64,000 nt of DNA from Escherichia coli (GTDB taxonomy: Bacteria > Pseudomonadota > Gammaproteobacteria > Enterobacterales > Enterobacteriaceae). Position numbers and translations under genes: made by a program. Of this stretch, positions 4,137-23,913 are shown in pieces. The stretch lies in NCBI RefSeq assembly GCF_011045215.1, contig NZ_CP049201.1. The stretch is one strand, 5' to 3'. Numbering within the stretch: position 1 is the first letter of the stretch; each line of letters starts with the position of its first letter. Under the pieces are notes generated by a model. That model saw only the letters and a program-made list of their open reading frames with translations. It searched no databases and was not told the DNA's origin.

Positions 4137-5675
4137 TTATTCTGAAGCGAGAAATTTGTCGAGATAAGGTACAACATAAGGAACAGAAGTCTGGAATATA
4201 CCATTTTCAATCCAGTAAAGGGTGTTTGCCCCTGGGCGTAAATTAAAGGCGGTGAGATATGCATCAGCTGCTTCCCGATTCATCCCCTTCATTTCATAAA
4301 CCTTGCCAAGCAATACATAATTTAGCCAGGACATTTCAAGATCAATGCCAGTATTTATCGCCTGGTAAGACTCATCTGTTTTACCTTTTACCAGAGCACT
4401 GACCGCTTTTATTTGATATATAATGGACAGGTTATTCAATTCCGGTAGTGTAACAATGTTATCTATTTCTGTGTTCAGTGCTGCTAATTGTTTTTCATCT
4501 AAAGGATGTTGAGAATGGCGCACGATATCAACTAATGCTTTTTCTGCTCTCGCGTAGGTAAATTCTGGAGATGATTGAACAATCTCACCTAATAATTCAC
4601 TGGCACGGTTCAATGATTTATCATCGCCATGCAGTAAATAATCATGTGCCTGATAAAAATTAGTTAATAACGCACCACGATGAGGCAAAATTTGCTGGAG
4701 CGTCTCCTGCATTCGTTGTGGCCACGGTTGGTTTAACGCTTTTGATAAACTCTCCAGTAAATCATTTTGAATCGCCAGCTGATTACCGTTAGTGATGACA
4801 TAACGTTTATCCAGCATGGTTGAACCATCTGCATTGTCTACCAATTTTATCGACATAAAGCATTGTTGAGCACGGTATTGGCGCTGATTAACAAACGCAA
4901 TAGATAATGTTTTACCGGAACTGCTCGGTTCATCAATGTTGTAGTTGATTTTGTCATGCACCATAAAGGTGGAGAAGGTGTTAAGTGATGTCGCCACCAA
5001 ATCACCCACGCCTATCGCGTAAGAGAGCTGATACGGGGAACTCCAGCTGTTACAACTTTTATTTACCATATTAATGTCAATATCGCGTGGATTGAGCAAA
5101 ATACGCGATTTGCTCATCGGAAGACGTGTATCAAGACTTGAAAACGCTACCAGTGCTACACAGATACCTAAGGACAACAGGAAAAAAAACCATACCCAAA
5201 AGGTAGTGAATCGTTTGCTTTTAACTGGGGATTGTTCAGGTGGCGTTGCGGTGTTTTGAATGTTAAGGCTGTGGGAGGGAGAATCTGTGGCAGGAACCGC
5301 CTCTGGTATAGGGGGAGGCGAAGATAGCATTATTTCCTCTCCCTCTTCTTCGCTGTACCAGATAACCGGCACCATTAATTTATAGCCGCGCTTTGGTACA
5401 GTAGCGATATAGACAGGACTATCTTCATCATTATCTTTTAATGACTTACGTAGTTCTGAGATACTCTGCGTCACAACGTGATTGGTGACAATACTTCTCT
5501 TCCAGACATTATCGATAAGTTCATCCCTGCTAAGTACTTCGCCACTGTGTTGAGCAAAGAAAACCAGAAGATCGATTAATCTCGGCTCAAGGGTAAGTTG
5601 ACGCCCATTGCGGCTAATTTGGTTTATGGACGGAGTAACAAGCCATTCGCCAACGCGAACTACAGGTTGTTGCAT
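4137..5675 (-). CDS. cadC: ToxR-like membrane-integrated transcriptional activator CadC
   Basis: 512-aa ORF with an N-terminal winged-helix DNA-binding region (MQQPVVRVGEWLVTPSINQISRNGRQLTLEPRLIDLL), a central TM segment (FWVWFFFLLSLGICVALVAF) and a periplasmic sensor domain; matches E. coli CadC. Confidence 0.93.
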   Translation of the reverse strand: MQQPVVRVGEWLVTPSINQISRNGRQLTLEPRLIDLLVFFAQHSGEVLSRDELIDNVWKRSIVTNHVVTQSISELRKSLKDNDEDSPVYIATVPKRGYKLMVPVIWYSEEEGEEIMLSSPPPIPEAVPATDSPSHSLNIQNTATPPEQSPVKSKRFTTFWVWFFFLLSLGICVALVAFSSLDTRLPMSKSRILLNPRDIDINMVNKSCNSWSSPYQLSYAIGVGDLVATSLNTFSTFMVHDKINYNIDEPSSSGKTLSIAFVNQRQYRAQQCFMSIKLVDNADGSTMLDKRYVITNGNQLAIQNDLLESLSKALNQPWPQRMQETLQQILPHRGALLTNFYQAHDYLLHGDDKSLNRASELLGEIVQSSPEFTYARAEKALVDIVRHSQHPLDEKQLAALNTEIDNIVTLPELNNLSIIYQIKAVSALVKGKTDESYQAINTGIDLEMSWLNYVLLGKVYEMKGMNREAADAYLTAFNLRPGANTLYWIENGIFQTSVPYVVPYLDKFLASE

Positions 5676-6340: not shown

Positions 6341-6439
6341 ATGGCAATGAGCTTCTGATAATTAAGAGTTCGTCAAGTAGTTAAAAGAGTTTTTTCATGT
6401 GCATCCAGTCTCAACTTATAAATGAGAAGGATGTGCGTA

Positions 6440-7315
6440 ATGAACATTCTGCCCGTTGTGTCCACCAAAGGTGGCGAAGGAAAATCAACCCAGTCTGCTA
6501 ACCTTGCCGGTTTTCTGGCGGATGCCGGCCTCCGTACCCTGCTGATAGACGGAGACCATGCCCAGCCCACGGCAAGCAATATCTTTCCGCTGACGTATGA
6601 AGCGCCGGCCGGTCTTTTTGAATTACTGATGCGCACGGCTGACCTCAGTCATCCCGACAACATCATTTCCCGCACGGCTATCGACGGCCTTGACCTGATA
6701 GTCTCCAATGACCCCCATGAACAACTGAAAACGGCCATGCTTCATGCGCCGGATGGTCGTCTCCGTCTGCGTAATGTGCTCCAGCATCCGCTTTTCCAGA
6801 GCTATGACGTCATTGTGGTGGATTCACAGGGCGCGCGTTCCGTCATGCTGGAAATGATTGTGCTGTCTGCCACGGAGTCTGTGGTGGGGATGGTGAATCC
6901 GGTTCTGCCGGATGTGCGTGAGTTCATTCGCGGCACAGTCAATGTCATGGAAAACCTGTTGCCCTACCGTGAACTGGGTATCCCCCTGCCGAAAGTCCGC
7001 ACCCTGGTTAACTGCATGGATTATACGGCGCTGGCCAGACAAACACTGGCGGAGCTGACCGACATTATTAACTCCGGTCGCTACAGCAAAGTGCTTCCGG
7101 AAGGCGCGGTCACCCTGCTTTCAACACAGATTTATGACCTGAATATTTACAAACAGGGACACGCAGCCGGCCAGCCGGTGCACCGCCTTGAAAAAGCGTC
7201 TGCCCGTCGCAGTGATTCTGCGCTGGTCACCATGCACAGCCTGGCCTGTGAGTTGTTGCCGGAGTGGAGTGAGTTTTTTGATGTACTGCTGGAAAACGGA
7301 GGTGAAAGCCTGTGA
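6440..7315 (+). CDS. ParA/Soj-family partition ATPase
   Basis: Deviant Walker A KGGEGKST near the N-terminus (MNILPVVSTKGGEGKSTQSANLA), then LLIDGDHAQ. AAGGA RBS 9 nt before the ATG at 6440. First gene inside the island, as in soj-terminal ICEs. Confidence 0.85.
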   Translation: MNILPVVSTKGGEGKSTQSANLAGFLADAGLRTLLIDGDHAQPTASNIFPLTYEAPAGLFELLMRTADLSHPDNIISRTAIDGLDLIVSNDPHEQLKTAMLHAPDGRLRLRNVLQHPLFQSYDVIVVDSQGARSVMLEMIVLSATESVVGMVNPVLPDVREFIRGTVNVMENLLPYRELGIPLPKVRTLVNCMDYTALARQTLAELTDIINSGRYSKVLPEGAVTLLSTQIYDLNIYKQGHAAGQPVHRLEKASARRSDSALVTMHSLACELLPEWSEFFDVLLENGGESL

Positions 7316-10564: not shown

Positions 10565-10760
10565 AAATTTTTTCCTTTAAAACAACTTGTTATGAATGAA
10601 CGAATGCTGTCCGTATCTTCTGACCGGGGGCGGCAAACTCACCGGTCTGAAAACGTACGGACAGTTACCGGGATTTTATTCCCGACAACTGTACGTCCGG
10701 CACCCTTTTTCCTTTTTTCACATAGCCAGGTTTCCGGCAGTCAGAGGGGGAGGGGACACC
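10545..10760. repeat. copy C of the ~200-bp repeated divergent-promoter module
   Basis: Direct alignment with copies A and B; lies immediately upstream of the helicase gene. Confidence 0.8.
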
Positions 10761-12128
10761 ATGGCTGAAATGTCTGTTCTCTGTGCATACGAAGCAGAGC
10801 AGGCCGTTCTGGGCGGTCTGATGCTGGAGAATGAACGCTGGGATGAAGTGGTGCTGATGCTGAGTCCTGACGATTTTTATGTGGCTCCGCACCGGGTCAT
10901 TTTTCGTGCCATGTCTGAACTGGCGGTGAATGGCCAGCCTCTGGACCTGATTACACTGTCAGAACTCCTGGAACATCAGGGCAGGCTGGACGTACTGGGC
11001 GGTTTTGCTTATCTGGCAGAGCTCAGCAAGAACACACCTTCTGCGGCCAACATCATGGCCTATGCAGGCATTGTGGTGGAGAAAAGCGTTCTGCGTCAGT
11101 TACAGGCCACCGGAAACACCCTGATTGCTGATGTGGCGGCACCGAACGCCACATCACGGGACGTGCTGGATACTGCAGAGCGGCGTCTGTTTGCTCTTGC
11201 GCAGAACAGGACGCTCCGGGAGCGCACGGAAGCCTCTCTTTCATCCGCGCTCGATACCGTTCTGCAGCAACTGGAAAGTGTGCTCGGTTCCGGCGGTGTG
11301 ACCGGTACCCCCACGGGATTTGACTGTCTGGATGAAATGACCTGTGGCCTGCAGCCAGGTGACCTGGTCCTGCTGGCTGCCCGTCCGTCAATGGGGAAAA
11401 CCTCTCTGGCACTGTCCATGTGTCTCAGTGCCGCCCTGCGGCGGACGGAAGAGAGCGTTCTGGTATTCAGCATCGAGATGCCGAAGGAGCAACTGATTCT
11501 GCGCATGCTTTCCATGCTGGGACGTGTGGAACTGAATCATCTGCGCAGTGGCAACATGGATGATGAGGACTGGACGAGGGTGTCATCTGCGGTTGGCATG
11601 GCGCTGGGTGACGGAGGCATGGATGCGCTGGGTGAGCGCCTGATAATTGATGACTGCAGCCAGCAGACACCGTCATCGCTGCGTGCCAGTGCCCGCCGTT
11701 ATACCCGCCTGTACGGTAAACCCGCTCTGATTATGGTGGATTATCTGCAGCTGATTCGTGCGCCGGAGCTGGAGAACCGCACCCAGGAAATTGCTGAAAT
11801 TTCCCGTTCCCTGAAAGCGCTGGGGAAGGAGCTGGGATGTCCGGTGCTGGCCCTCTCCCAGCTTAATCGTCAGGTGGAACAGCGTGCAGATAAACGCCCC
11901 AATAACGGTGACCTGCGTGATTCCGGGGCACTGGAGCAGGATGCTGACCTGATTATGTTTATTTACCGCGACGAGGTCTATAACCCCGATTCACTGGCAA
12001 AGGGGGAGGCTGAAATTATTGTCAGCAAGCAGCGTCAGGGGCCCACAGGCACGGTGCGGGTCAGGTTCGACGGTCGTTACACACTGTTTACGCCCTCTGA
12101 AAATGACGGACAGGGAGGATATGCGTGA
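10761..12128 (+). CDS. DnaB-like replicative DNA helicase (ICE-encoded)
   Basis: DnaB N-terminal signature (MAEMSVLCAYEAEQAVLGGLMLENERWDEV...), RecA-like core with Walker A AARPSMGKTSLALS and Walker B LIMVDYLQL. GGGAGG RBS. The ORF-track start at 10596 lies inside the repeat and is unlikely. Confidence 0.85.
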   Translation: MAEMSVLCAYEAEQAVLGGLMLENERWDEVVLMLSPDDFYVAPHRVIFRAMSELAVNGQPLDLITLSELLEHQGRLDVLGGFAYLAELSKNTPSAANIMAYAGIVVEKSVLRQLQATGNTLIADVAAPNATSRDVLDTAERRLFALAQNRTLRERTEASLSSALDTVLQQLESVLGSGGVTGTPTGFDCLDEMTCGLQPGDLVLLAARPSMGKTSLALSMCLSAALRRTEESVLVFSIEMPKEQLILRMLSMLGRVELNHLRSGNMDDEDWTRVSSAVGMALGDGGMDALGERLIIDDCSQQTPSSLRASARRYTRLYGKPALIMVDYLQLIRAPELENRTQEIAEISRSLKALGKELGCPVLALSQLNRQVEQRADKRPNNGDLRDSGALEQDADLIMFIYRDEVYNPDSLAKGEAEIIVSKQRQGPTGTVRVRFDGRYTLFTPSENDGQGGYA

Positions 12129-13804
12129 TGGCACACAAACCACTGAATCTCGGGGCTGCCATTATGCAGCCCGGTCGTCAGGCCAGTGCCGCCGGTAATG
12201 TGGTGGCGCTGGGGGAAACCCCCATGATTCTGACGCTGGACCAGTTGCGTCCGAATCCGGATAACCCGCGCACCACGCGCAATCCGCGTTATGACGACAT
12301 CAAAAACTCCATTCACGCCCGCGGGCTGGATACAGTGCCCAAAGTCACCCGTATGCCGGACAGTGAGCCGGATGTGTATATCTTCAGTGACGGGGGAAAC
12401 ACCCGTTACCAGATACTGACGGAACTCTGGAAAGAAACGGGGGACCCGCGTTTTTACCGTATTCATGTGCTGTTCAAACCCTGGCCGGGACGGCTTCAGT
12501 GTGTGATTGGTCATCTGGCGGAAAATGAAGTTCGCGGTGAACTGACCTTTATTGAGAAGGCACAGGGCATTCACAAGGCAAGACAAATTCATGAGGAACA
12601 ACTCGGCAGAAAAGTTTCCCTTCGTGAACTGGCGGATTTGTTAACCCATGAAGGGTTGCCGGTACACAACTCCACGATCAGCAGAATGGAGGATGCCCTG
12701 AAATATCTGTACCCCTGGATCCCCGACCTGATGGAGTCAGGACTGGGGCGACATCAGATTACGGCACTGCTGGCACTTCGTCAGGACGCAGAGCGTGTCT
12801 GGGGACAGTTTGCGCTGACGTCCGGCACGGACGCGGAATTTGACCGCGTGTTCGGGGAAAGCTGCCGGAAGTTTAATTCGCCGGAGCTGTGGTCACTGGA
12901 GATGTTTCGGGATGAGCTGATTGGAGATTTGTTGCAGGCGCTGCCACATCCCTCCCTGGACTATGACCGGTGGCTGTTGGAGCTGGATCCGAAAGAGCGG
13001 AACCGTCGTCACCATTTTGGTGAGCCGGAACCGGTGGTGGTACCGCCGTCAGTCCGTGACAGTGGCACAGGGCAGTCCGGTGCACCGGTATCCCGTATCC
13101 GGCCGGAGGTACCGGAAATCTCTGCCCCTGATACTGAGCCCGGACAGCATGATGTTGCCCGACCGGAGAACGCTGTTTCTGACACAGGCCTCACTGAAAA
13201 ATGCGGGTTTCCTTCCCCGGAGGAGACTGCAGACAGAGCGCCTTCTTCTGCCGGGAAAGTCCGGCGTTCAGAGATGCAGCCGGATATGTACGGCGGTGAG
13301 CCGGTCTTCAGCGGTGATGCTGTGGACGCGGGGATTGCCGGGGCCGCTGTGCCATCCGTTATGACCGGCGATACAGTGCCGTCCGGAACACCTGATGTAC
13401 TTCCCGTGTCTGTGACGCATTTTGCTGAAGGACGGGATGATATCGAGCATCTGCAGAATGAGGCCTTCCGGCTGGCATGGGAACTGGCTGAATCTGCCGG
13501 CTGTGCTGAAGAAATTGCCATGGACAGAGAAAGTGACCTGTCGGCTGGTTTCGGGACTGCAGAGGAGAAATGTTCGCCGGTGACGGCATTTCTGATGGGG
13601 CTGACCGGCGATGCGCCGCTGACAGTGTCTCCCGTCAGTCTGACAGACCTGCTGACAGGCGGCAGTGCGCCGGAAGCATGGCCACTGCTGGATGATGAAC
13701 ATGCCGTGAAGCTGCTGCGTCTTCTGAGTGTGCTGCGCCGTCTGCGCGCCCTGCAGCGCAGTGTGTTACCCGAAGATGATGAGGAGGATGAAAGTGATGA
13801 GTGA
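12128..13804 (+). CDS. ParB-like nuclease-domain protein with long low-complexity C-terminus
   Basis: N-terminal ParB/Srx-like region (LDQLRPNPDNPRTTRNPRYDDIKNSI...DGGNTRYQIL). Start overlaps the helicase stop (ATGA), suggesting coupling. Confidence 0.75.
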   Translation: MAHKPLNLGAAIMQPGRQASAAGNVVALGETPMILTLDQLRPNPDNPRTTRNPRYDDIKNSIHARGLDTVPKVTRMPDSEPDVYIFSDGGNTRYQILTELWKETGDPRFYRIHVLFKPWPGRLQCVIGHLAENEVRGELTFIEKAQGIHKARQIHEEQLGRKVSLRELADLLTHEGLPVHNSTISRMEDALKYLYPWIPDLMESGLGRHQITALLALRQDAERVWGQFALTSGTDAEFDRVFGESCRKFNSPELWSLEMFRDELIGDLLQALPHPSLDYDRWLLELDPKERNRRHHFGEPEPVVVPPSVRDSGTGQSGAPVSRIRPEVPEISAPDTEPGQHDVARPENAVSDTGLTEKCGFPSPEETADRAPSSAGKVRRSEMQPDMYGGEPVFSGDAVDAGIAGAAVPSVMTGDTVPSGTPDVLPVSVTHFAEGRDDIEHLQNEAFRLAWELAESAGCAEEIAMDRESDLSAGFGTAEEKCSPVTAFLMGLTGDAPLTVSPVSLTDLLTGGSAPEAWPLLDDEHAVKLLRLLSVLRRLRALQRSVLPEDDEEDESDE

Positions 13805-14522
13805 TATGCCGCATCAGGAGCGTCTGGTCAGACGGGTCAGGAAACTGCTGGAGCTGAGTCGCAATAACAGTAATGCCCATGAGGCCGGGCTGGCGCTTGC
13901 AAGGGCGCAACAGCTGATGGCGAAACACGGTATCACGGAGCAGGATGCCGGACTTTCTTCGGTGCAGACGTCTTCATCACAGGGGGCACCTTCTGAGGCT
14001 GAAAAAGTTCCGGCGTGGATGTTTCGTCTGGTCATGGTGGTGTCACAGACATTTGGCTGCAGGGCGTATTACGACTGGCGGTTGATGCCCGGTGGCAGGT
14101 ATCGCCGGTGTGTGACGTTTTACGGTTTCAGTGAACGTCCTCAGGTGGCGGCTTATGCGTTTGATGTTCTGTGCCGCCAGTTGAGGGACGCAACGGATGC
14201 GTATCTCCGTACACAGAGCCGGCGGCTGAAACTGAGCACCCGCCGCGCCCGGGCCGCTCAGTTCCGCGATGGCTGGGTTCAGGGCGTTCGTCAGGTGGTG
14301 ATGCCATTCAGTGTGACAGAAGAGGAAAGCCGGCTGATGCGCCTCTGGCTGGAGCAGCAGGAGATGGAGACGGTGGACCCCCGGGAGGTGAAAGCCTGTC
14401 GCGGCGGTGACCAGGCCCGCTGGCAGGGGTATGAGGCCGGGAAAAATGCCTTACTGCATCATGGTGTGGGGGGAACAGCCCGCCAGATGGTGCCGGGGCT
14501 GATGATACGGGAGGCGTCATGA
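13797..14522 (+). CDS. conserved ICE protein (DUF2786-like N-terminal motif)
   Basis: GAGGAGGA RBS 8 nt upstream; overlaps the ParB-like stop. Motif KLLELSRNNSNAHEAGLALARAQQLMAKHG. Family assignment is from memory. Confidence 0.55.
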   Translation: MSDMPHQERLVRRVRKLLELSRNNSNAHEAGLALARAQQLMAKHGITEQDAGLSSVQTSSSQGAPSEAEKVPAWMFRLVMVVSQTFGCRAYYDWRLMPGGRYRRCVTFYGFSERPQVAAYAFDVLCRQLRDATDAYLRTQSRRLKLSTRRARAAQFRDGWVQGVRQVVMPFSVTEEESRLMRLWLEQQEMETVDPREVKACRGGDQARWQGYEAGKNALLHHGVGGTARQMVPGLMIREAS

Positions 14523-15097
14523 ATAACAGCTTATCTCAGGCAACCAACGGTCTGCTGATGCAACTGGTGATGGACCTCAGGAGCGGCTATCTGCGTCGCT
14601 GTGAATCTCTGGGACTGGCCCGGGAGGAAATGCAGATGCTGCAGGGACTGACCATTGAGGAAATCCATTACCTGTCTAACTCGGAAGTGTCGGTTATCCG
14701 GCTGGACATTAATCATGAAAACCTGCTGCGAATGCTGCAGCAGGCCCGGACGGAGCAGAAACGTCTGCAGCGCATTGACCGTGCCCTGGCGCTGGGTGGT
14801 TCCATTGAGCTGATGGCGTTTTACTTTGGACTTTCCAGTGTGGATGTTGCGGCGCGCCGGCGCATTGCCGGTATTGATGTTCGTCCGGGACGTGGTGTCA
14901 CGCTGAGCGATGAGGAAAGTGCAGAGCTGTGGCGGTTATGGCAGAAGGCGGGCATCACGGATGTGGAGAGTGCGGACGGACTGGATGTCATGATGCTGGC
15001 TGCGGAGCAGATGAATATCCCGCTGACGGCTATCTGGCATGCAGTAAGGGGTTGGTGCGCTGACCGGCAGACGGAGCCGGTAAGGAATGCGTCATGA
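14519..15097 (+). CDS. conserved ICE protein (192 aa); resembles SPI-7/PAPI-1 replication-region proteins
   Basis: Overlaps the upstream stop. Synteny with the helicase/ParB block. Confidence 0.5.
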   Translation: MNNSLSQATNGLLMQLVMDLRSGYLRRCESLGLAREEMQMLQGLTIEEIHYLSNSEVSVIRLDINHENLLRMLQQARTEQKRLQRIDRALALGGSIELMAFYFGLSSVDVAARRRIAGIDVRPGRGVTLSDEESAELWRLWQKAGITDVESADGLDVMMLAAEQMNIPLTAIWHAVRGWCADRQTEPVRNAS

Positions 15098-15705: not shown

Positions 15706-16134
15706 ATGAACAGTATTCATTATCAGGCACTGCGTGAAGTTGCACAAAACTATCAGTCGACGCTGGCGTGGTATCAGGCTATCCCGGATAGCCCAAACGC
15801 TGAGGTTGATTGTGATGAGGCTTTGGCTGCGTTTAAGCGTCAAATCCGTCACAGGGAAGTGGATATTATCGCCGATCTGCTGGATGAACTGGAAGCCGCA
15901 AAAAAGCGTATTGCGGAACTGGAGGAAGAGAAAGAAACGTTGCGTCCGGTTGGTGTTATGAGCAGGAGAGCATTTTGGCGGCTTGAGAATAGAGGACCAC
16001 GATTTATTGCACTCTGGCCCGGACCGGGAATATACCTGCTGCGTAAACGTCCTGATGATGGCGTTATTGTTTACGCCAGAACTGACGCCGGCATTGGCGT
16101 GAAGCAGCAAAATGACGCAGGGATTAAGGATTAA
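15706..16134 (+). CDS. hypothetical protein (142 aa), paralog of the previous gene
   Basis: AGGAG RBS; coiled-coil-like segment ELEAAKKRIAELEEEKE. Confidence 0.5.
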   Translation: MNSIHYQALREVAQNYQSTLAWYQAIPDSPNAEVDCDEALAAFKRQIRHREVDIIADLLDELEAAKKRIAELEEEKETLRPVGVMSRRAFWRLENRGPRFIALWPGPGIYLLRKRPDDGVIVYARTDAGIGVKQQNDAGIKD

Positions 16135-16237
16135 TCGAAAGTGTTCAGCCAGCCCCCTGCATCCAGCAGGGGGCTGTAATAAGCATTTTTGTACCGGATA
16201 AAAAGCGGCGATATTGCCGCTACTGAATGAGGTGATT

Positions 16238-17482
16238 ATGGCGTTACCTGCGGAAAGCCTGATTGCGTATACCCTGGAAAAAATGAAGCACCGTATGACC
16301 ACCGGAGCCCGGAAGGAGGAGGGGCGAATACGCAGCGGACTGTTGTTCACCGGCAATGTGCACGATGCCATTCCGCGTCGTCTGTTGCTGGATACGCGTC
16401 TTTCACCGCTGGACAAGATGGCATGGATGATGATCCGGCTGTATGCGCAGAATAATGAGGGGGCCATTTTTCCTACTTACGATGAACTGCAACTGCAGCT
16501 GGCATCGCCGGGAAAGGGAAAAGCTTCCAGAGAAACCGTCAGCCGGGTATTGCTGATGTTGCGGATCACGGGCTGGCTGAGCCTGTGTAAACGGGTACGT
16601 GATGATAAAGGCCGGGTTCGGGGAAACATTTACGCCCAGCATGACGAGCCCCTGACGTTCTGCGATGCAGAGGCGATGGATCCGCGTTATCTGGATATAG
16701 TGGCAGAAGCCTGTATGAGCCGGAACCGGACCATCAGTCAGACGGCACGGGATATTCTTTGTGAAATAAAAAATGATCCGGGAATGCGTCACTATCACAG
16801 CCATATCAGTCAGCTGGAAGCCCGGATAGGAAGTGCCCAGACACCGGGGCAGATGGCTGCCCGTCAGCGGGTGACAGAGGACAGAATGCGGCCGGGTTCG
16901 GAAACCGAACCAGTGGTGAGAACACTGAGTTCGGCACCGGAAAAGCTGAGTTCGGAAACCGAACCGGGTAAAAAAATGGGGCAAAAAAGACAGAGTTCGG
17001 ATCCCGAACCATCAGGAAAATCAGCAGGTTATCACAGAGTCCGGGAACCGAACCATTACGTACGTAATATCACACACAGTGTGATTAAAAACACGTACGT
17101 ACTGCCGGCGTCGCTGACGGGGCAAATCAGGGAGGAAGATGCCATCATGCTGACTAGTCAGTTGCAGGCGTTGCCGGAAGCGCTGGCACAGGGGGTGCTG
17201 GAAAGCCTGTCAGGGATGCTGGGCAGTCAGTCACTGCAGAACCCGGTGGGCTGGCTGCTTGCAGTGCTGAAGCGTGCCCGGGAGGGAAATTTTTATCCAC
17301 CGAAACAGAAACAGCGCGTCGCTGCATCAGCCACCATACAGGCGGGAGCGGGAGGGCGCACCACTTCGCAGCCTGTTGTCACCCGGAAACGTACAGAACC
17401 CATTTCAGCAGAACGTCTGAGTGGCATTGTGGCAGGACTACGGGCCTCCCTTCGCAACCGTCCTGCGATGAGAGCCCGGTGA
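16238..17482 (+). CDS. putative ICE replication-initiation-associated protein (414 aa)
   Basis: GAGGTG RBS. Large conserved ORF immediately upstream of the iteron array; basic Gly/Ser/Pro-rich C-terminal half. Function inferred from synteny. Confidence 0.5.
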   Translation: MALPAESLIAYTLEKMKHRMTTGARKEEGRIRSGLLFTGNVHDAIPRRLLLDTRLSPLDKMAWMMIRLYAQNNEGAIFPTYDELQLQLASPGKGKASRETVSRVLLMLRITGWLSLCKRVRDDKGRVRGNIYAQHDEPLTFCDAEAMDPRYLDIVAEACMSRNRTISQTARDILCEIKNDPGMRHYHSHISQLEARIGSAQTPGQMAARQRVTEDRMRPGSETEPVVRTLSSAPEKLSSETEPGKKMGQKRQSSDPEPSGKSAGYHRVREPNHYVRNITHSVIKNTYVLPASLTGQIREEDAIMLTSQLQALPEALAQGVLESLSGMLGSQSLQNPVGWLLAVLKRAREGNFYPPKQKQRVAASATIQAGAGGRTTSQPVVTRKRTEPISAERLSGIVAGLRASLRNRPAMRAR

Positions 17483-17502
17483 TGGCGTTGTGATTCACGT
17501 TC

Positions 17503-18090
17503 ACAGAGAGCAAAAATCAACCAGTGCTGCCAGTGGCAGCATAGAGCAAAAATTAGCCAGTGCTGCTCGGGGCAGCATAGAGCAAAAATTAGCCAGTGCT
17601 GCCCGGGGCAGCATAGAGCAAAAATCAGCCAGTGCTGCCCGGGGCAGCATAGAGCAAAAATCAGCCAGTGCTGCCCGGAGCAGCATAGAGCAAAAATTAG
17701 CCAGTGCTGCCCGGGGCAGCATAGAGCAAAAATTAAGCAGTGCTGCCCGGGGCAGCATAGAGCAAAAATTAGCCAGTGCTGCCCGGGGCAGCATAGAGCA
17801 AAAATCAGCCAGTGCTGCCCGGGGCAGCATAGAGCAAAAATTAAGCAGTGCTGCCCGGGGCAGCATAGAGCAAAAATTAGCCAGTGCTGCCCGGGGCAGC
17901 ATAGAGCAAAAATCAGCCAGTGCTGCCCGGGGCAGCATAGAGCAAAAATCAGCCAGTACTGCCCGGAGCAGCATAGAGGAAAAATTAGTCAGTGCTGCCC
18001 GGGGCAGCATAGAGCAAAAATTAGGCAGTGCAGCCCGGGACAGCATAGAGTGAAAATTAGCCAGTGCTGCCAGTGTCACCAAAGAACAAA
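17503..18090. repeat. tandem array of about 15-16 copies of a 36-bp unit (iteron-like; candidate vegetative origin)
   Basis: Unit GCAGCATAGAGCAAAAATTAGCCAGTGCTGCCCGGG repeated head-to-tail with few substitutions (TTAGCC/TCAGCC/TTAAGC). Each unit holds a 7-bp palindrome GCTGCCC-G-GGGCAGC. The periodicity creates artefactual repetitive ORFs on both strands. Confidence 0.85.
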
Positions 18091-18354
18091 AATTATGCTG
18101 CGTCAGCAGCATGGAAGGCGGCGGCACTGAATATCCTGAAACATCTGACGGTAAACCGCCGAAGCCCGGCGTCAGCCGGAAACGTCCTGACAGGATGCAG
18201 TGCTCTCCCCGGCCCTGCCAGACCCTGTTTGTTTCAGGAAAAAGCCTGTGTCACATAAAAGAACCGGAGTACAGAGGTAAAACAGAATACTTGCCGCCGT
18301 TTTTTCCGTCAGTATACTTTTTCGTGCTGAAATTCTGGCTAAGGAAAGATTTTT

Positions 18355-19101
18355 ATGACAAATATTAAAATTCTGGCATTCAGTGTGCTGGCAGCCTTTT
18401 CAGTGGGTGCCGCGCATGCGGAAAGTACGCTGACAGTGGGGGCCGGGGTCGGCGTTGTTGAACAATCCTATAAAGGGTATGACGCAAAGGCTTACCTGAT
18501 CCCTGCGGTTTCTTATGACAGTGATTATTTCTGGTTCCGGGGGCTGGGCGGGGGCTTTTATCTGTGGAATGACAGTGCGGATACGCTTTCTGTGACGGCA
18601 TACTGGGCACCGATGTATTTTAAACCGGATGACAGTAATGACCATCAGTTACGTCTGCTGGATGAGCGTAAAAGCACACTGATGGCGGGGATATCCTGGT
18701 CTCATAATACGCCATATGGTTTCCTGCGCACGGGGCTTGCTGCGGATGTACTGGATAACAGTAATGGTGTTGTTGGTGATGTGGCGTGGTTATACCGTTA
18801 TGTGAATGGTGGATTCACCCTGACACCGGGGATTGGTGTGGAGTGGAGCAGCCAGAAACAGAACGACTATTATTATGGCGTATCGCGTCGTGAATCTGCG
18901 CGCAGCGGTCTGGAGCGGTATAAAGCGGATAATGGCTGGTCACCTTACCTTGAAATCAGTGCAAATTACACCTTTGCCGGCAACTGGGGGATCTACGGAA
19001 CCGCACGTTACAGCCGCTTATCTGATGAAGTTAAAAACTCTCCCATGGTGGATAAGTCATGGGATGGACTGTTTTCCACCGGGATCACTTATCGTTTCTG
19101 A
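18355..19101 (+). CDS. MipA/OmpV-family outer-membrane protein
   Basis: Signal peptide (MTNIKILAFSVLAAFSVGAAHA), beta-barrel-like alternating pattern, C-terminal aromatic residue (ITYRF). Confidence 0.75.
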   Translation: MTNIKILAFSVLAAFSVGAAHAESTLTVGAGVGVVEQSYKGYDAKAYLIPAVSYDSDYFWFRGLGGGFYLWNDSADTLSVTAYWAPMYFKPDDSNDHQLRLLDERKSTLMAGISWSHNTPYGFLRTGLAADVLDNSNGVVGDVAWLYRYVNGGFTLTPGIGVEWSSQKQNDYYYGVSRRESARSGLERYKADNGWSPYLEISANYTFAGNWGIYGTARYSRLSDEVKNSPMVDKSWDGLFSTGITYRF

Positions 19102-19265: not shown

Positions 19266-19964
19266 ATGAGTGAAGATAAACTGAACCAGAAAGATGTCCG
19301 GGCCGGCGCATTGCAGTCCTCGCTGTCCATTCTGTTACATACCCATTATGCCATTCGTCTTTGGGAAGGACGTTTACCCGGACGAAAGCCCGGGAATATG
19401 CCCTGGATTATGAGTATGCCGCAGGCAATAAAACGTGCCGGGGGGATTTACCGGGATTCCCTGGCGGATAATCCCTATGCCGATGAAGCGATGTGGAAGG
19501 TGGAAAATGCAATTAATGCTGCCAGTGAAAAAGTACATGCTCTGGTTGGCTGGCTGGAGCAGGTTCTGTGTGCCGTGCCGGCGAATATTACCATGACTGA
19601 TGTTGTATCCCGTTCTCCATTAAATATTGGGGTTTACAGTAGTTCTCCGCTGGGGTATCGCTGTGTCTGGCTGCTTGTGGGATATGATCAGATGGCTCTG
19701 AAAGCGTTTCAGGCATCCCACTTTGGCCTGATTTCCCGGCAGAAACGGGACGAGTTACTCTCACATGGCGGGTATCTTATCCGGAAAATTTACGGCATTT
19801 TAAGGGGTTATTATGCCATCCCTGTCACACGACAGGATCTTGAAGAAAAAACACCGGCGGGAGAACAGGCGATGGCACGCCTGGGGCTCCCTGATGCTGA
19901 GATTATGAATGGGCAGTTGCGATCATCATTTTCTCCTCCGCTGAAGAAAAAGAAGAATAAATAG
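19266..19964 (+). CDS. conserved ICE protein (232 aa), Lys-rich C-terminus
   Basis: ORF directly upstream of topB, as in PAPI-1-type elements. No catalytic motif recognised. Confidence 0.5.
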   Translation: MSEDKLNQKDVRAGALQSSLSILLHTHYAIRLWEGRLPGRKPGNMPWIMSMPQAIKRAGGIYRDSLADNPYADEAMWKVENAINAASEKVHALVGWLEQVLCAVPANITMTDVVSRSPLNIGVYSSSPLGYRCVWLLVGYDQMALKAFQASHFGLISRQKRDELLSHGGYLIRKIYGILRGYYAIPVTRQDLEEKTPAGEQAMARLGLPDAEIMNGQLRSSFSPPLKKKKNK

Positions 19965-19974
19965 TGGGGGATAA

Positions 19975-21984
19975 ATGCAACTTTACTTGTGTGAAAAACC
20001 GTCACAGGCGCGGGATATTGCCCGGGTGCTGGGGCTCAGCGGGCGGGGAGAGGGCTGTATTGAAGGTGATACTGTCACGGTCACCTGGGCTGTGGGGCAT
20101 CTGCTGGAGCTGGCCGCCCCGGAAGCGTACGGGGAACAGTTCGGGGTTCCCTGGCGTATGGAGTCGCTTCCCGTTCTGCCTGAAAAGTGGCAGATGACGG
20201 TTAAACCGCAGACGAAATCCCAGTTTACGGTGATCAGCCGCCTGCTGAAGCGTGCGTCTGAAGTGGTGATTGCCACGGATGCGGACAGGGAAGGAGAAGT
20301 CATCGCCCGGGAACTGCTGACGTACTGCCGGTACCGGGGGCCAGTCCGTCGGCTGTGGCTGTCTGCCCTGGATGAGGCCAGCGTCCGGGAGGCGCTGGCA
20401 AATATTCTGCCCGGTGAGCAGACGGCCCGTCTGTATGATGCCGGCCTGGCCCGTGGTCAGGCTGACTGGCTGATCGGGATGAACCTGACGCGTCTGTATA
20501 CCCTTAAGGCCCGGGCGTCGGGGATCCAGGATGTGTTGTCCGTCGGAAGGGTACAGACGCCGACACTTGCCATGGTGGTCAGACGGGATCAGGAGATTGC
20601 CGGTTTTGTGCCACGCCCCTGGTGGCAGGTGTTTGTCGGGCTGGAGAAAGACGGGATCCGGTTCCGGGTCGTCTGGGTGGCGGCAGAGCAGTACTGCGAT
20701 GAAGAGAAACGGTGCGTGAACGTTCAGGCGGCCCGGGCTGTTCTTCAGTTGTGTCAGCAGACACCGTCAGCGGTGGTGCATGAGGTGACCCGGAAGTGTG
20801 AAAAAACACCGGCTCCGCTCTGTTTTTCGCTGGGTACACTGCAGGAGGCCTGCTCCCGGAAATTTGGTATGGGAGCGCAGACTGTGCTGAATATCGCGCA
20901 GTCCCTGTATGAGACGCACAAAGCCACGACGTATCCCCGGACGGACTGTGGCTATCTGCCTGAATCCATGCAACAGGAAAGCCGGGAGGTACTGGCGGCG
21001 ATGGCGCGTTCAGACCCGGCCCTGACGCCGGTTCTGGCACAGCTCGATCCCGGTTTTGTTTCACGTATCTGGAATGACAAAAAGATTACGGCACACCATG
21101 CCATTATTCCGACCCGGCAGGTCTTTGATATCAGGGCACTGAGTGAAGATGAACTGAAGGTGTATCAGCTTATCCGCCAGCATTATCTGGCCCAGTTTCT
21201 GCCCCTGCAGGAGTCTGATATTACTGATGCAACACTGACACTCGGCGGGCAACGGTTCAGGGCCCGCGGGAAAGTGAATGTGGTGACGGGCTGGCGAAGC
21301 CTGTTTTCCGGGGAGGCTGCAGAAGTTGCTGAAGGTGAAGATGAACAGACGACGGAAATGGCGTTGCCGGCGCTTGAACGGGGAGAGCACTGCCGGATTA
21401 GCGGTTCAGAACTGAAGGACCGGATGACGTCACCTCCGGCACCTTTTACGGAAGGAACCCTGATTGCCGCCATGAAGAATGCTGCCAGTCAGGTCAGCGA
21501 CCCGAAGCTGAAAAAAGTGCTGCGGGAGAATGCCGGTCTGGGGACGGAGGCCACGCGGGCCGGTGTGCTGGAGGTGTTATTTGCCCGGCAGTATCTGGAG
21601 AAGAGCGGGAAGCATATCCGGTCAACGCAACGGGGCAGGGAACTGACGGCCGCCCTGCCGGAAGCCCTGACCAGTCCGGGCATGACGGCGCTGTGGGAGC
21701 AGGCTCTGGATGATATTGCACAGGGCAGAATGTCACTGGATACCTTTATGGGCAGACAGCAGCAGTGGGTGCGTCATCTGGTCTCATCCGGGCGGGAACA
21801 GCCCTTCAGTATGACGGTTCCGGTGACGCCGCCGTGCCCGCTTTGTCAGGGGCCGACCCGGCAGCGAAAGGGAAAGCACGGACTGTTCCGGAGCTGTCAG
21901 CGGTATCCTGAGTGTAAGGGCGTGGTGAACACGCAGAAAAAGGCCGGGCGACGAAAAAACGCGGGAAAAACTAAAACGGAGTAA
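19975..21984 (+). CDS. topB: DNA topoisomerase III (TopB-like)
   Basis: TOPRIM N-terminus (MQLYLCEKPSQARDIARVLGL...VVIATDADREGEVIAREL), type IA core, C-terminal zinc-ribbon cysteines (CPLCQG...CQRYPEC). Confidence 0.9.
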   Translation: MQLYLCEKPSQARDIARVLGLSGRGEGCIEGDTVTVTWAVGHLLELAAPEAYGEQFGVPWRMESLPVLPEKWQMTVKPQTKSQFTVISRLLKRASEVVIATDADREGEVIARELLTYCRYRGPVRRLWLSALDEASVREALANILPGEQTARLYDAGLARGQADWLIGMNLTRLYTLKARASGIQDVLSVGRVQTPTLAMVVRRDQEIAGFVPRPWWQVFVGLEKDGIRFRVVWVAAEQYCDEEKRCVNVQAARAVLQLCQQTPSAVVHEVTRKCEKTPAPLCFSLGTLQEACSRKFGMGAQTVLNIAQSLYETHKATTYPRTDCGYLPESMQQESREVLAAMARSDPALTPVLAQLDPGFVSRIWNDKKITAHHAIIPTRQVFDIRALSEDELKVYQLIRQHYLAQFLPLQESDITDATLTLGGQRFRARGKVNVVTGWRSLFSGEAAEVAEGEDEQTTEMALPALERGEHCRISGSELKDRMTSPPAPFTEGTLIAAMKNAASQVSDPKLKKVLRENAGLGTEATRAGVLEVLFARQYLEKSGKHIRSTQRGRELTAALPEALTSPGMTALWEQALDDIAQGRMSLDTFMGRQQQWVRHLVSSGREQPFSMTVPVTPPCPLCQGPTRQRKGKHGLFRSCQRYPECKGVVNTQKKAGRRKNAGKTKTE

Positions 21985-22614: not shown

Positions 22615-23070
22615 ATGTCTGTAAATACTGCTAAAACTGAATACTTTAATCTGACCCTGAAAGGTCTGGGGTATCTCAGTAATGTACGTCAGGTGAATCA
22701 CCAGAACGGCTCGTTTCTCAGCTGTGTGGTGAATGCGCTGAGCGGACCCACGGACAGCCCGTCCTACGTCCGTTTTGATGTCACGGTTGCCGGTAAAGAG
22801 GCGACTGCCCTGATTGCCCGCTGCCAGAAGGCGGTGGATGAAGATCGCAAGGTGCTGCTTGGCTTCACGCTGAGCAACCTGTCCACTGACATCTTCACTC
22901 TGAACAAGGGAGAGCATGCCGGTGAACAACGCGTCAGCCTGAAGGCCCGCCTGATCAAGGTGGACTGGATCAAGATAGGCCAGGAGATGGTTTACAAGGC
23001 TGAAAAATCAGACTCCCAGCCGCCGCAAAACGGCACCATGCAACAGCAATACGCAGAAAACTCTTTCTGA
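22615..23070 (+). CDS. conserved ICE protein upstream of ssb (151 aa; DUF3577-like)
   Basis: GGAG RBS; position between topB and ssb is typical for this ICE family. Family name is from memory. Confidence 0.55.
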   Translation: MSVNTAKTEYFNLTLKGLGYLSNVRQVNHQNGSFLSCVVNALSGPTDSPSYVRFDVTVAGKEATALIARCQKAVDEDRKVLLGFTLSNLSTDIFTLNKGEHAGEQRVSLKARLIKVDWIKIGQEMVYKAEKSDSQPPQNGTMQQQYAENSF

Positions 23071-23379: not shown

Positions 23380-23913
23380 ATGGCATCACGCGGTATTAAT
23401 AAGGTGATACTGATAGGACATCTTGGACAGGATCCGGAGATTCGTTATCTTCCCAATGGCGGAGCCGTGGCGAACCTGACCCTGGCCACCAGTGAATCCT
23501 GGCGTGATAAACAGAGCGGTGAAATGAAGGAGCAGACCGAGTGGCACCGCGTGGTGATTTTCGGAAAACTGGCGGAGATAGCCGGTGAATACCTGCGTAA
23601 GGGTTCACAGGTGTACATCGAGGGCCAGTTAAAGACCCGGAAGTGGTTCGATCAGCAGAATGGTGTTGATCGCTACGCAACGGAAGTGGTGGTGAGTGTC
23701 AACGGCACCCTGCAGATGCTGGGCTCTCCGCGCCAGCAGGCCAGTGGTGCCGCACCCGTACACAGCGGTCAGGGAACTGCCGGTGCGCCGGCGGGTAACT
23801 CACCGTCACCGGCTTCCGGGAACGGCGGGGGAATGCCGATGGATTTTGACGACGACATTCCCTTCAGTGGACCGGGATATGGCGCTGAACGGCGGATTAT
23901 CCATGCCATGTAA
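23380..23913 (+). CDS. ssb: single-stranded DNA-binding protein with a 15-aa extension beyond the DDDIPF tip
   Basis: OB-fold N-terminus ([44 protein letters not shown]...), Gly/Pro/Gln-rich linker and acidic MDFDDDIPF motif, but the frame continues [15 protein letters not shown] before the stop. Confidence 0.85.

Follow-up and report, generated by a model that had tools for sequence, protein, structure and literature searches.

Since 2004, a block of tandem repeats has been labeled as the presumed replication origin of pKLC102, PAPI-1-like islands, PFGI-1, SPI-7 and ICEHin1056-type islands. These conjugative islands disseminate genes for virulence and resistance in Pseudomonas, Salmonella, E. 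coli, Klebsiella and plant pathogens. For the repeats of pKLC102 and PFGI-1, the label comes from sequence alone; as late as 2020, the origin was named "postulated". pKLC102 reaches about 30 copies, and the description of PFGI-1 treats two classes of repeats, those inside the STY4528 gene and those of the array behind it, as the halves of a single oriV. ICEclc is the only family member that has been tested, and its excised form needs the TraI relaxase and oriT1 to replicate.

ICEclc belongs to the same ICE superfamily, and its gene order is bisD-bisC(DUF2857)-orf96323-...-inrR (PMC7423338). The BisD protein binds two 11+1+11 palindromes, named bisS, in a syntenic region downstream of the gene in the STY4528 position; it has CTPase activity and spreads across some 50 kb (Antar et al., NAR 2025, PMC12409273). 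Here we analyzed a window of 64,000 nt of E. coli DNA that harbors an ICE of the SPI-7/PFGI-1/pKLC102 type, and compared its repeat array to about 60 related elements. The origin label of this family, now 20 years old, would be revised by the reading as ParB sites that we put forward.

The 36-bp repeat array and its genetic context

Tandem Repeats Finder reported one array (17507..18095, unstranded) with a period of 36 bp, 16.4 copies, 92% matches and no indels. The unit-by-unit listing showed 16 units in register with palindrome centers at 17533 + 36n (n = 0 to 15), in agreement with the about 15-16 tandem units counted in a sequence-only reading of the same DNA. Each 36-bp unit consists of a 17-bp palindrome, TGCTGCCC-g-GGGCAGCA, and a 19-bp spacer, TAGAGCAAAAATTAGCCAG. 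The palindrome is a perfect 8+1+8 repeat, TGCTGCCCgGGGCAGCA, in 10 of the 16 units, and this contains the GCTGCCC-G-GGGCAGC core described earlier. Five units have 1-3 palindrome mismatches, and unit 1 reads TGCTGCCAgTGGCAGCA. The copies are contiguous, with the segment between the palindromes conserved, and the array was rightly described as head-to-tail and spacer-less; since unique spacers are lacking, it is not a CRISPR array. The motif TGNTGN7CANCA occurred 18 times in the window compared to 2.05 expected occurrences, and 14 of the 18 were within the array. Every spacer has a conserved A-tract, which the ParB reading does not account for.

A degenerate unit 0, TGTGATTCaCGTTCACA (17489..17505, unstranded), precedes the array in the 36-bp register, and relatives have TGTGGTCCaCGTTCACA at this position. 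The downstream flank harbors a terminal hairpin, ATGCTGCgtcaGCAGCAT (18095..18112, unstranded), that is related to the array palindromes. Owing to a T-run that follows it on the minus strand, the hairpin resembles a terminator, and it was the sole terminator-like feature in a scan for promoters and terminators. The array units themselves were ruled out as terminators, since the T-run is located 9 nt away from the stem. An Rfam scan of 15-20 kb at an E-value threshold of 1 gave no match. A duplication of the 3' end of the STY4528 gene beyond the array was rejected, as there was only a 31-nt match at 77%.

The array starts 25 bp past the stop codon of a gene for a STY4528-family "pathogenicity island replication protein" (16238..17482, + strand; NF040582, 405 bits), the large replication-associated gene of the earlier reading. 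Its ORF opens with TTG at 16214, while the ATG at 16238 agrees with the database proteins. The genes for an SPI-7-type DnaB (10596-12128), for the ParB-family protein and for a ParA/Soj-type ATPase (6422..7315, + strand) are in the same block, as had been noted. The latter is annotated as "ParA family protein" in relatives and has partial matches to the ParA, SopA and MinD families, as expected for a partner ParA. A DUF2857 protein (14519..15097, + strand), which is identical across all E. coli relatives examined, is by its PGAP names in relatives a BisC-like partner of ParB; BisC carries DUF2857 (PMC7423338). The first conserved gene 3' of the array is of the PFL_4669 family (19266..19964, + strand) and has the InrR position by synteny, with a MipA/OmpV cargo gene (18355-19101) inserted between it and the array. 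Genes for DnaB, TopoIII, Ssb and STY4534 ("ICE replication protein") surround the array region. Between parB and the array downstream of it there are 3.7 kb and six ORFs, compared to 25 bp between the STY4528 gene and the array, which is a counterpoint to the assignment of the array to ParB.

The order parA ... parB/bisD, DUF2857/bisC, STY4528-position gene, sites, PFL_4669/inrR, ssb is shared with ICEclc. GNTR and ENxxR motifs occur in BisD as well as in the ParB protein of the present element, and both proteins have a long linker and a domain at the C-terminus. Like the array palindromes, bisS consists of long perfect inverted repeats with one central nucleotide just 3' of the STY4528-position gene. 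In contrast, bisS (GAGCTATCCCCnGGGGATAGCTC) is unrelated in sequence (TGYTGsCm-n-kGsCARCA here, GAGCTATCCCC-n-GGGGATAGCTC there), and ICEclc has two single sites within the inrR and ssb genes, whereas 16 tandem intergenic copies are present here. Binding, spreading and CTPase activity were shown for BisD and are presumably shared by the ParB protein of this element. A bisS-like site, GGCTATCCcGGATAGCC (15777-15793), was rejected: it shares GCTATCC with bisS of ICEclc but its spacing differs, and just four E. coli-type loci have it, inside a cargo-like ead/Ea22 gene.

The arrays are homologous throughout the family. The 57-bp "oriV" repeats of pKLC102 and the 46-bp repeats of PFGI-1 occupy the same slot between the STY4528 and PFL_4669 homologs and have the palindrome core in common (GTGGTGCCAcTGGCACCAC; TGTTGCCAcTGGCAACA in edge units); they differ from the 36-bp units in length, and the Pseudomonas units have no A-tract. 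Tandem Repeats Finder gave 15.2 copies for the 57-bp array, which the 2004 pKLC102 paper reportedly words as "16 x 57 bp".

Tandem ParB sites are known from the sopC centromere of F, which has 12 units of 43 bp, each with a 7-bp inverted repeat that is bound by SopB. As in sopC, every unit of the array has one ParB-type palindrome, a ParA/ParB system is present, the element is conjugative and copy number is not critical. Unlike sopC, which directly follows the gene for the type Ia protein SopB, the tandem array is not located directly behind parB, and the protein in question is a BisD-type hybrid ParB with a probable second role in activating transcription. The half-sites resemble parS (TGTTnCAC) and the Noc site NBS (TATTTCCC), and one relative (L036) has TGTTGCAC-g-GTGCAACA; parS and NBS are 16 bp long, while the palindromes here have 17 bp with an extra central base.

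Co-variation of the palindromes with residues of ParB

We consider it likely that parS/bisS-like sites for the ParB-family protein of the ICE itself were amplified to form the array. The parB gene (12125..13804, + strand; NCBIfam TIGR03764, 379 bits) encodes a BisD-like protein of the PFGI-1/ICE type, a homolog of BisD from ICEclc. In its translation, GNTR (about residues 91-94) and ENEVR (about residues 134-138) are the motifs of the CTP pocket. An HTH (residues 166-195; codons 12620..12709, + strand) follows, and behind it are a long linker, which is disordered, and a helical domain at the C-terminus. Foldseek with the AF2 model (pLDDT 85.7) gave a probability of 1.00 to the Noc (Noc-DNA), KorB and ParB (ParB-CTP) clamps. 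Thus, a protein with the ParB/Srx fold, a GxxR and ENxxR pocket and an HTH, as needed for a loading site, is encoded in cis. In the model, residue 182 caps the recognition helix of the HTH, and residues 209-214 are the N-terminus of helix 209-233.

Co-variation was analyzed for 41 loci and 527 well-occupied ParB columns, with 1,914 columns from five other proteins of the same loci as null. N182, the first residue of the recognition helix (codon 12668-12670, + strand), tracked base 3 of the half-site, and residues 209-214 (RHQITA; codons 12749..12766, + strand) tracked the inner bases 6-8. Residue 182 was the best ParB predictor of base 3 (normalized MI of 0.70, null maximum 0.49), and H210 paired with C at base 8 (MI of 0.92, null maximum 0.63). 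Base 3 was C in 14 of 17 loci with N or D at 182 and in none of the 24 loci with other residues (Fisher p = 2e-8), and base 6 was G in 20 of 23 loci with R213 and in 0 of 18 with other residues (p = 7e-9); both p-values overstate independence because the loci are phylogenetically related, an effect that is mitigated by the control proteins and by the factorial pattern among close relatives. The rule for residue 182 was broken at three loci (L054, L007, L060).

The factorial pattern was seen among E. coli relatives with Rep proteins of 92-98% identity. The combination of N182 with RHQ.TA goes along with the half-site TGCTGCCC (L048, the window), N182 with [GS]PQVRN with TGCTGGCA (L046, L049, L056), and A182 with [GS]PQVRN with TGTTGGCA (L047, L051-53). 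For A182 with RHQ.TA, the majority half-site of L055 is TGTTGCCC, while L050 has TGTTGCCA and TGTTGCCC in equal number and its majority inner triplet is scored CCA. The pattern fitted 10 of the 12 E. coli relatives and three of the four cells, with the A182/RHQ.TA cell depending on L055 alone and with L054 violating the residue-182 rule. Xenorhabdus made the same switches independently, SDGH occurring with TGCTG and SASH with TGTTG. As a point against the ParB reading, minority non-cognate variants are present inside arrays, mostly at the edges. Hybrid units occupy the borders between variant blocks.

STY4528 behaved differently. None of its columns changed along with the sites in both test clades. 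Its winged helix (residues 86-146) does not vary among the E. coli-type loci, although these have four types of site. By alignment, the palindrome bases co-vary with the predicted DNA-reading residues of ParB and not with STY4528. If this reading is true, the recognition code would be N or D at 182 for C and A, Y or F for T, R213 for G, and H210 for C or P210 for A. A switch of specificity by few residues in or just after the HTH is also known from the change from ParB to Noc; the residues here are candidates from co-variation.

The size of the palindromes is consistent with clamp loading sites (about 16-23 bp): they are perfect over 17 bp in the window and reach up to 15+1+15 bp in relatives. 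Xenorhabdus, Cedecea and Serratia have 1-3 isolated copies with arms of 11-15 bp and a second identical copy 1-3 kb away. Three loci have the sites within parB, and the arc-parB operon of one locus has a site copy at its 5' end. Second, distant copies within one element are of the same variant.

That the protein physically binds the sites, is loaded as a CTP clamp and has the roles described below is inferred from these data and by analogy. One ParB dimer would bind per 17-bp palindrome, with the HTH recognition helix, starting at residue 182, reading the outer half-site (TG-N3-TG) and residues 209-214, at the start of the long helix that follows, reading the inner three bases. By analogy to ParB, KorB, Noc and BisD, CTP-bound ParB would close into a sliding clamp upon binding to a site, and the clamp would spread into the co-directional transfer genes downstream. 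Together with the BisC-like protein the clamp may activate these genes, and together with ParA it may position or segregate the excised element. Sixteen tandem sites could act like sopC of F by allowing more loading events or a larger partition complex. Probably one site is enough for function, which may be why the unit number drifts from 1 to 26 in relatives; it would change by slippage and unequal exchange, with interior units being homogenized to the cognate variant.

Other readings of the array

The array had been proposed as a candidate iteron origin. The term origin agrees with the literature label in pKLC102, PFGI-1, SPI-7 and ICEHin1056, while the part that makes the units iterons for the upstream protein was not supported. 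In this alternative, which we regard as unlikely, the STY4528-family initiator would bind the array either for melting or for copy control by handcuffing as in P1 incA. Tandem repeats right behind an initiator-like gene, the oriV annotation of the homologous arrays in pKLC102 (57 bp x 15) and PFGI-1, the many relatives that are free, autonomous plasmids, with pKLC102 at about 30 copies, and lambda O, which binds dyad-symmetric iterons, all speak for it. The co-variation data stand against it, as no STY4528 column tracked the sites in both clades and its winged helix did not vary among the E. coli-type loci. The units are also palindromic and 36 bp apart, whereas typical iterons are non-dyad, about 17-22 bp long, spaced by roughly two turns and constrained in number. 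The comparison of unit numbers that the earlier reading had suggested gave 1-3 in several free plasmids and 3-26 among near-identical ICEs. In three loci (L023, L024, L031) the repeats are within parB and none are near rep. No AT-rich unwinding region or DnaA-box cluster was found adjoining the array: GC content was 45-63% over the array and its flanks with the MipA start as sole low-GC stretch, and the only DnaA box within 200 bp was a single-mismatch box, not above chance. GC skew was monotonic across the island and gave no origin signal. The dependence of ICEclc replication on TraI and oriT1 also disfavors iterons at this position.

Better candidate sites for the initiator are present inside the STY4528 gene and are found throughout the family. 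Its linker-coding DNA harbors five GTTCGGnnnCCGAAC palindromes (starts at 16895, 16928, 16949, 16994 and 17038), followed by ATTACGTACGTAAT and ATCACACacaGTGTGAT (16895..17085 in total, unstranded), and is only mildly AT-rich (about 43% GC). The GTTCGGnnnCCGAAC sites are also present in the pKLC102, P. veronii, Pantoea and Citrobacter loci. The N-terminal winged helix of the protein resembles DnaD, RepA_N and RctB; it is followed by a disordered linker (residues 217-286) and by a helical domain at the C-terminus. In lambda (O/ori-lambda) and RepA_N plasmids the origin is located within the initiator gene, and STY4528, not the array, is similar to these systems in its initiator-like winged helix, its disordered linker and its C-terminal domain, and in the five dyad repeats plus further short palindromes of the linker-coding DNA. 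The GTTCGGnnnCCGAAC set is thus a likelier candidate for an initiator-bound origin than the array; the assignment is by sequence, and the equivalent ICEclc site was shown just not to bind BisD.

It is rather improbable that the ParB-bound array belongs to the vegetative origin together with the STY4528-internal palindromes, in the way that parS clusters flank oriC. The description of PFGI-1 joins both repeat classes in one oriV, both adjoin in nearly all loci, and the DnaB, TopoIII, Ssb and STY4534 genes are nearby. However, cargo insertions can part the array from rep, or the array can move into parB, and the element lineage persists.

We rate it as very improbable that the array is neutral hairpin or cruciform DNA that persists through slippage and template-switch "palindrome correction" and has no binding protein of its own, or that it might be a single-strand signal for priming or processing after transfer. 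Three units as single-stranded DNA fold with -28 kcal/mol (z = -5.1), and the palindromes stay perfect through many variant changes, even inside one array; the hybrid units at the block borders would also fit. In contrast, the symmetry extends to the base beside the 1-nt center, which is unable to pair in a hairpin, the distant second copies have the same variant, and the variant identity is predicted by ParB residues.

A translated repeat protein, for which 36 bp as 12 codons, two to three open frames in the window (among them 17490-18053 on the + and 17501-18127 on the - strand), PGAP ORFs named "saposin" or "hypothetical protein", ATGA-coupled ORFs over the pKLC102 and pSGI4 arrays and the true translation as ParB linker in L023, L024 and L031 could be cited, is hardly credible: L047 has 17 stops in the +B frame, the three + frames are shut in Mixta and all six in pEB102, some periods (46 bp in PFGI-1, 106 bp and 250 bp) are not divisible by 3, the PGAP strand flips between near-identical elements, and correlated V..N, G..T and D..I changes follow DNA symmetry and not protein chemistry. 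Since every frame has stops in some relatives, the array is not a conserved coding repeat, as the sequence-only reading had held, with the copies inside parB as exception, and the RefSeq genes called over these arrays are a recurrent mis-annotation. The frame that is open past the STY4528 TGA in the window is the frame of STY4528 itself, and close relatives break it (1-nt offset in L049, 3 stops in L047). Third-position variability (entropy of 9.4 compared to 3.1 and 4.3) was rejected as a sign of coding, as it is largely forced by symmetry about position 9.

Possible separation of origin and ParB sites

Assignment of the array to ParB leads to a wider proposal, which we make tentatively. SPI-7/pKLC102-type elements may have two separate cis systems that were lumped as "oriV": an origin inside STY4528 (GTTCGGnnnCCGAAC) in the style of lambda O/RepA_N and a private, rapidly diversifying ParB-clamp array. 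The specificity of the array would come from two recombinable modules (residue 182 for base 3, residues 209-214 for bases 6-8). Shuffling of these modules and concerted evolution could generate orthogonal centromere/activation sites by which co-resident ICEs of one family could escape cross-talk or incompatibility, and the length of the array could serve to tune the threshold at which the BisDC bistable switch responds.

If the array consists of ParB sites, the search for the vegetative origin moves elsewhere, with the STY4528-internal palindromes as obvious candidate. The clamp mechanism of ICEclc BisD would then also hold for the enterobacterial SPI-7 branch, in which the sites can be identified, and the natural 2x2 allele series would be a ready-made recognition code for a ParB-family CTP switch. 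As a point against the ParB reading, the many relatives that are free plasmids must hold a vegetative origin somewhere in the replication/partition module. The 23-bp repeats at 29.5 kb, which were considered as true iterons, turned out to be the terminal repeats of an IS21-family element.

The tandem array and its genetic context

The window contains an integrative conjugative element of the SPI-7/PFGI-1/pKLC102 type. The chromosomal flank carries cadC (4137-5675, minus strand), and the first island gene encodes ParA (6422-7315). Further genes encode a SPI-7-type DnaB (10596-12128), a PFGI-1-type ParB (12125-13804; NCBIfam TIGR03764, 379 bits), DUF2786 (13728-14522) and BisC-like DUF2857 (14519-15097) proteins and the STY4528-family 'pathogenicity island replication protein' (16214/16238-17482). 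Beyond the array (17507-18095) lie a MipA/OmpV cargo gene (18355-19101), a PFL_4669-family gene (19266-19964) and the genes for topoisomerase III (19975-21984), the STY4534 'ICE replication protein' (22615-23070) and Ssb (23380-23913). ARAGORN detected no tRNA gene in the whole window. An IS21-family insertion sequence is located at 29500-32031 (IstA 29592-31259, IstB 31033-32031); the 23-bp direct repeats (TTTGGCAT..CGATCA) at 29500-29623 were rejected as iterons, as they represent its multi-repeat left end. The sequence CTGAGAGAAACGCCTTCGGGTGACT occurred five times in the window (0.01 expected), always on the plus strand (22332, 22378, 52985, 55190, 55253). It includes a GCC-TTCG-GGT hairpin, and some copies lie within 46-bp and 63-bp tandem duplications.

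Tandem Repeats Finder called a single array at 17507-18095 with a period of 36, 16.4 copies, 92% matches and no indels. In register, the array comprises 16 units, each consisting of a 17-bp palindrome and the 19-bp spacer TAGAGCAAAAATTAGCCAG. The palindrome is a perfect TGCTGCCC-g-GGGCAGCA in 10 of the 16 units and shows 1-3 mismatches in five; unit 1 is TGCTGCCA-g-TGGCAGCA. A degenerate unit that keeps the register precedes the array (17489-17505), and a related hairpin follows it (18095-18112). The motif TGNTGN7CANCA was found 18 times in the window versus 2 expected, and 14 of these copies were inside the array. Since the repeat call, the in-register units and the motif excess agree, the description and position of the array in the sequence-only reading were correct.

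Every spacer of the array harbors a conserved A-tract, GAGCAAAAATTA, in a fixed phase relative to the palindrome. The tract is TTAAAAA in Kluyvera, Mixta, Erwinia and pEB102 (loci L004, L009, L035, L059), and is missing from the 57-bp units of Pseudomonas and from copies located within parB. A 31-nt stretch of the STY4528 gene 3' end (17367-17397) is repeated directly after the array (18160-18190, 77% identity) and may be a trace of a flanking duplication.

ParB and the half-sites of the palindrome

In the ParB protein, GNTR and ENEVR occupy the places of the BisD motifs G92NTR95 and E136NELR140 (PMC12409273). In the AF2 model, which is of high confidence (pLDDT 85.7), a helix (166-175) and a turn are followed by the recognition helix (182-195), which starts with residue 182; residues 209-214 begin the next long helix. 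Foldseek matched the model to the Noc-DNA complex, KorB and ParB-CTP/CDP clamps with a probability of 1.00. A Pfam scan of ParB gave no match even at E <= 10; we treated this blank as unreliable, given the TIGR03764 score and the Foldseek result. Motifs and model predict that ParB is a BisD-type CTP clamp.

The half-sites differ between elements yet remain symmetric, with variants including TGCTGCCC, TGTTGCCC, TGCTGGCA, TGTTGGCA, TGTTGCCA, TGTTGCGG, TGGTGCCA, TGTTGCAC, TGCTGTCA and TGTTGGAG. For 41 loci, we took the majority base of every half-site position that varied (numbered from the outer end, base 8 beside the centre) and compared it to each alignment column of six proteins, ParB and the five controls STY4528, PFL_4669, TopoIII, DUF2857 and DnaB (1,914 control columns). 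The best ParB column was residue 182 for base 3 (normalised MI 0.70, control maximum 0.49) and residue 210 for base 8 (0.92, control maximum 0.63). For base 6, residues 214 and 213 scored best (0.80 and 0.74, control maximum 0.68). Of the 17 loci with N or D at residue 182, 14 had C at base 3, versus none of the 24 loci with other residues (p = 2e-8). Of the 23 loci with R213, 20 had G at base 6, versus none of the other 18 (p = 7e-9). As the loci share ancestry, these p-values serve only as a guide. H210 went along with C at base 8 in five of six loci, otherwise in 2 of 35. ParB columns 182 and 190 were the only ones to separate the site types in the E. coli and Xenorhabdus clades alike. No STY4528 column did so, and the STY4528 winged helix (residues 86-146) was invariant across all E. 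coli-type loci. The pairings Arg-G, Asn/Asp-C (or its paired G) and small/aromatic-T are chemically sensible.

Among the E. coli relatives, residue 182 and segment 209-214 occurred in all four combinations, and the sites largely followed both. The majority half-site was TGCTGCCC for N182 with RHQ.TA (window, L048), TGTTGCCC for A182 with RHQ.TA (L055; a tie of TGTTGCCA and TGTTGCCC in L050), TGCTGGCA for N182 with [GS]PQVRN (L046, L049, L056) and TGTTGGCA for A182 with [GS]PQVRN (L047, L051, L052, L053). As an exception, L054 has N182 and GPQVRN yet T at base 3 (TGTTGGCA); together with L007 and L060, three loci break the residue-182 rule. Minority variants are tolerated within arrays. The array lies 4.8 kb from parB, and the 17-bp site with bases 3 and 6-8 is repeated throughout. 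Because these bases share one repeated site, the sequences argue that protein-site co-evolution could produce the factorial pattern and that clonal linkage could not.

The DUF2857 protein (WP_001065818.1) was identical across the E. coli elements examined (L046-L056), unlike the neighboring ParB, DUF2786 and STY4528 proteins, which differed. The ParB HTH region of these elements looks mosaic, with recombinant alleles.

Interior units of the arrays were homogenised to the cognate variant, and edge units retained other, still perfectly palindromic variants. Boundaries between blocks of variants were marked by hybrid units, whose left and right arms belonged to different variants. The pattern is consistent with slippage and unequal exchange acting together with selection for cognate sites, and template-switch 'correction' of the palindrome may help to maintain perfect arms. 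The symmetry reaches the base adjoining the single central nucleotide. Since this base is unable to pair in a hairpin, symmetric recognition by a protein is favored over a purely structural role.

Probable ParB loading sites and alternative readings of the array

BisC of ICEclc has DUF2857, and bisD was formerly named parB; the gene order alpA-parA-shi-bisD-bisC-orf96323-orf95213-inrR (PMC7423338) matches the window element. The BisD foci of ICEclc form on an 11+1+11 palindrome that is present twice, in inrR and ssb. BisD spreads over about 50 kb along the transcription direction, has CTPase activity and, with BisC, activates transfer promoters (PMC12409273). Because ParB is BisD-like, the gene order is shared and ICEclc BisD provides a precedent, the array is most plausibly the counterpart of bisS in the SPI-7 branch. 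The tandem amplification of sites resembles F sopC. Judged by the co-varying residues, ParB probably binds the array palindromes. By analogy to BisD, we also consider it likely, with somewhat less confidence, that they are tandem ParB/BisD loading sites that also serve as a centromere and in activation. Within an ead/Ea22-like ORF, the perfect 8+1+8 palindrome GGCTATCCcGGATAGCC at 15777-15793 has the 7-mer GCTATCC in common with ICEclc bisS at a different spacing; it was found in L050, L053 and L054 and not in distant relatives.

The sequence-only reading had proposed an iteron origin and thereby independently arrived at the label used in the literature. The array is shared across the family. 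The region was present in 92 E. coli genomes, and a one-genome-per-species scan gave 40 further loci (Kluyvera, Erwinia, Mixta, Pectobacterium, Xenorhabdus, Serratia, Pantoea and others). The STY4528 gene was found on 35 plasmids including pKLC102, which has a 57-bp array (15.2 copies) between its STY4528 and PFL_4669 homologues, the same position as in the window. Its units hold GTGGTGCCA-c-TGGCACCAC, and some edge units the enterobacterial sequence TGTTGCCA-c-TGGCAACA. In PFGI-1, the putative oriV was placed 'immediately upstream of PFL_4669', with four 46-bp repeats with AGTGTTGTGGGCCACACCACT preceded by four CTGAGTTCGGAATCCGAACTCAGT palindromes (PMC2647930). ICEHin1056, SPI-7 and PAPI-1 were given the oriV label too (PMC2258188), and it was still 'postulated' in 2020 (PMC7685784). 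These assignments were made from sequence alone.

The iteron-origin reading received partial support only; iterons of STY4528 were not supported by copy number, co-variation or origin hallmarks. Comparison between strains spoke against them: 12 E. coli elements whose Rep proteins are 92-98% identical had 3, 4, 5, 7, 10, 11, 12, 13, 16, 21 or 26 units. Free plasmids of Pantoea, Duffyella and Citrobacter had 1-2 units, and pEB102 about three imperfect copies. The copy number is unconstrained. In place of arrays, Xenorhabdus, Cedecea and Serratia have 1-3 isolated palindromes whose arms are 11-15 bp long, and a second identical palindrome 1-3 kb away, directly upstream of PFL_4669. Neither an AT-rich unwinding region nor a DnaA-box cluster was found beside the array. 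Replication of excised ICEclc requires the relaxase TraI and oriT1 (PMC6561031), a different route in the one tested relative. The array could nevertheless contribute to replication, e.g., as an origin-proximal centromere. The proposed assignment of the array to ParB matters since an 'oriV' annotation of long standing is reassigned and the allele series provides a natural code of ParB recognition that can be tested.

A repeat-protein gene is suggested by several frames that are open across the window array because 36 bp equal 12 codons. PGAP ORFs over the arrays of relatives (e.g., L001/L046 8029-8773, L047 7912-8859, L048 7901-8248) are annotated as 'hypothetical protein' or 'saposin', on the plus strand in some and on the minus strand in others. 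Since the strand flips between near-identical elements, they are very likely artefacts of stop-free units. When frames were compared by position relative to the palindrome, none was open across all relatives' arrays. The frame of the window's plus-strand ORF is interrupted by 17 stops in L047, a close relative; in Mixta all three plus frames are closed, and in pEB102 all six. Periods of 46, 106 and 250 bp occur among relatives. The array is thus not a conserved repeat-protein gene, in line with what was already stated from the sequence. Relatives offer one exception: in three Pantoea and Enterobacter ludwigii loci (L023, L024, L031), four 36-bp units (TGTTGCCAnTGGCAACA) within parB, at about 3530-3657, are translated as a ParB linker (VATGNTSEPNST repeats), and no palindrome copies were found beside or downstream of rep. 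A CRISPR array, likewise dismissed before, does not apply, as the units lack unique spacers and Rfam gave no match.

A candidate initiator site within the STY4528 gene

Within the STY4528 ORF, the DNA coding for the disordered linker holds five GTTCGGnnnCCGAAC palindromes (16895-17054) and, after them, ATTACGTACGTAAT and ATCACACacaGTGTGAT up to 17085. These palindromes are conserved in the pKLC102, P. veronii, Pantoea, Citrobacter, Salmonella and E. coli loci. In lambda O/ori-lambda and RepA_N systems the origin is located within the initiator gene, a layout which these palindromes resemble. By this analogy, the initiator probably acts at the internal palindromes as a candidate origin, which we regard as a lead rather than a result. 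The 'first half' of the PFGI-1 oriV corresponds to these palindromes, and so does the CTTCGGAtTCCGAAG palindrome in orf96323 of ICEclc, to which BisD does not bind (PMC12409273).
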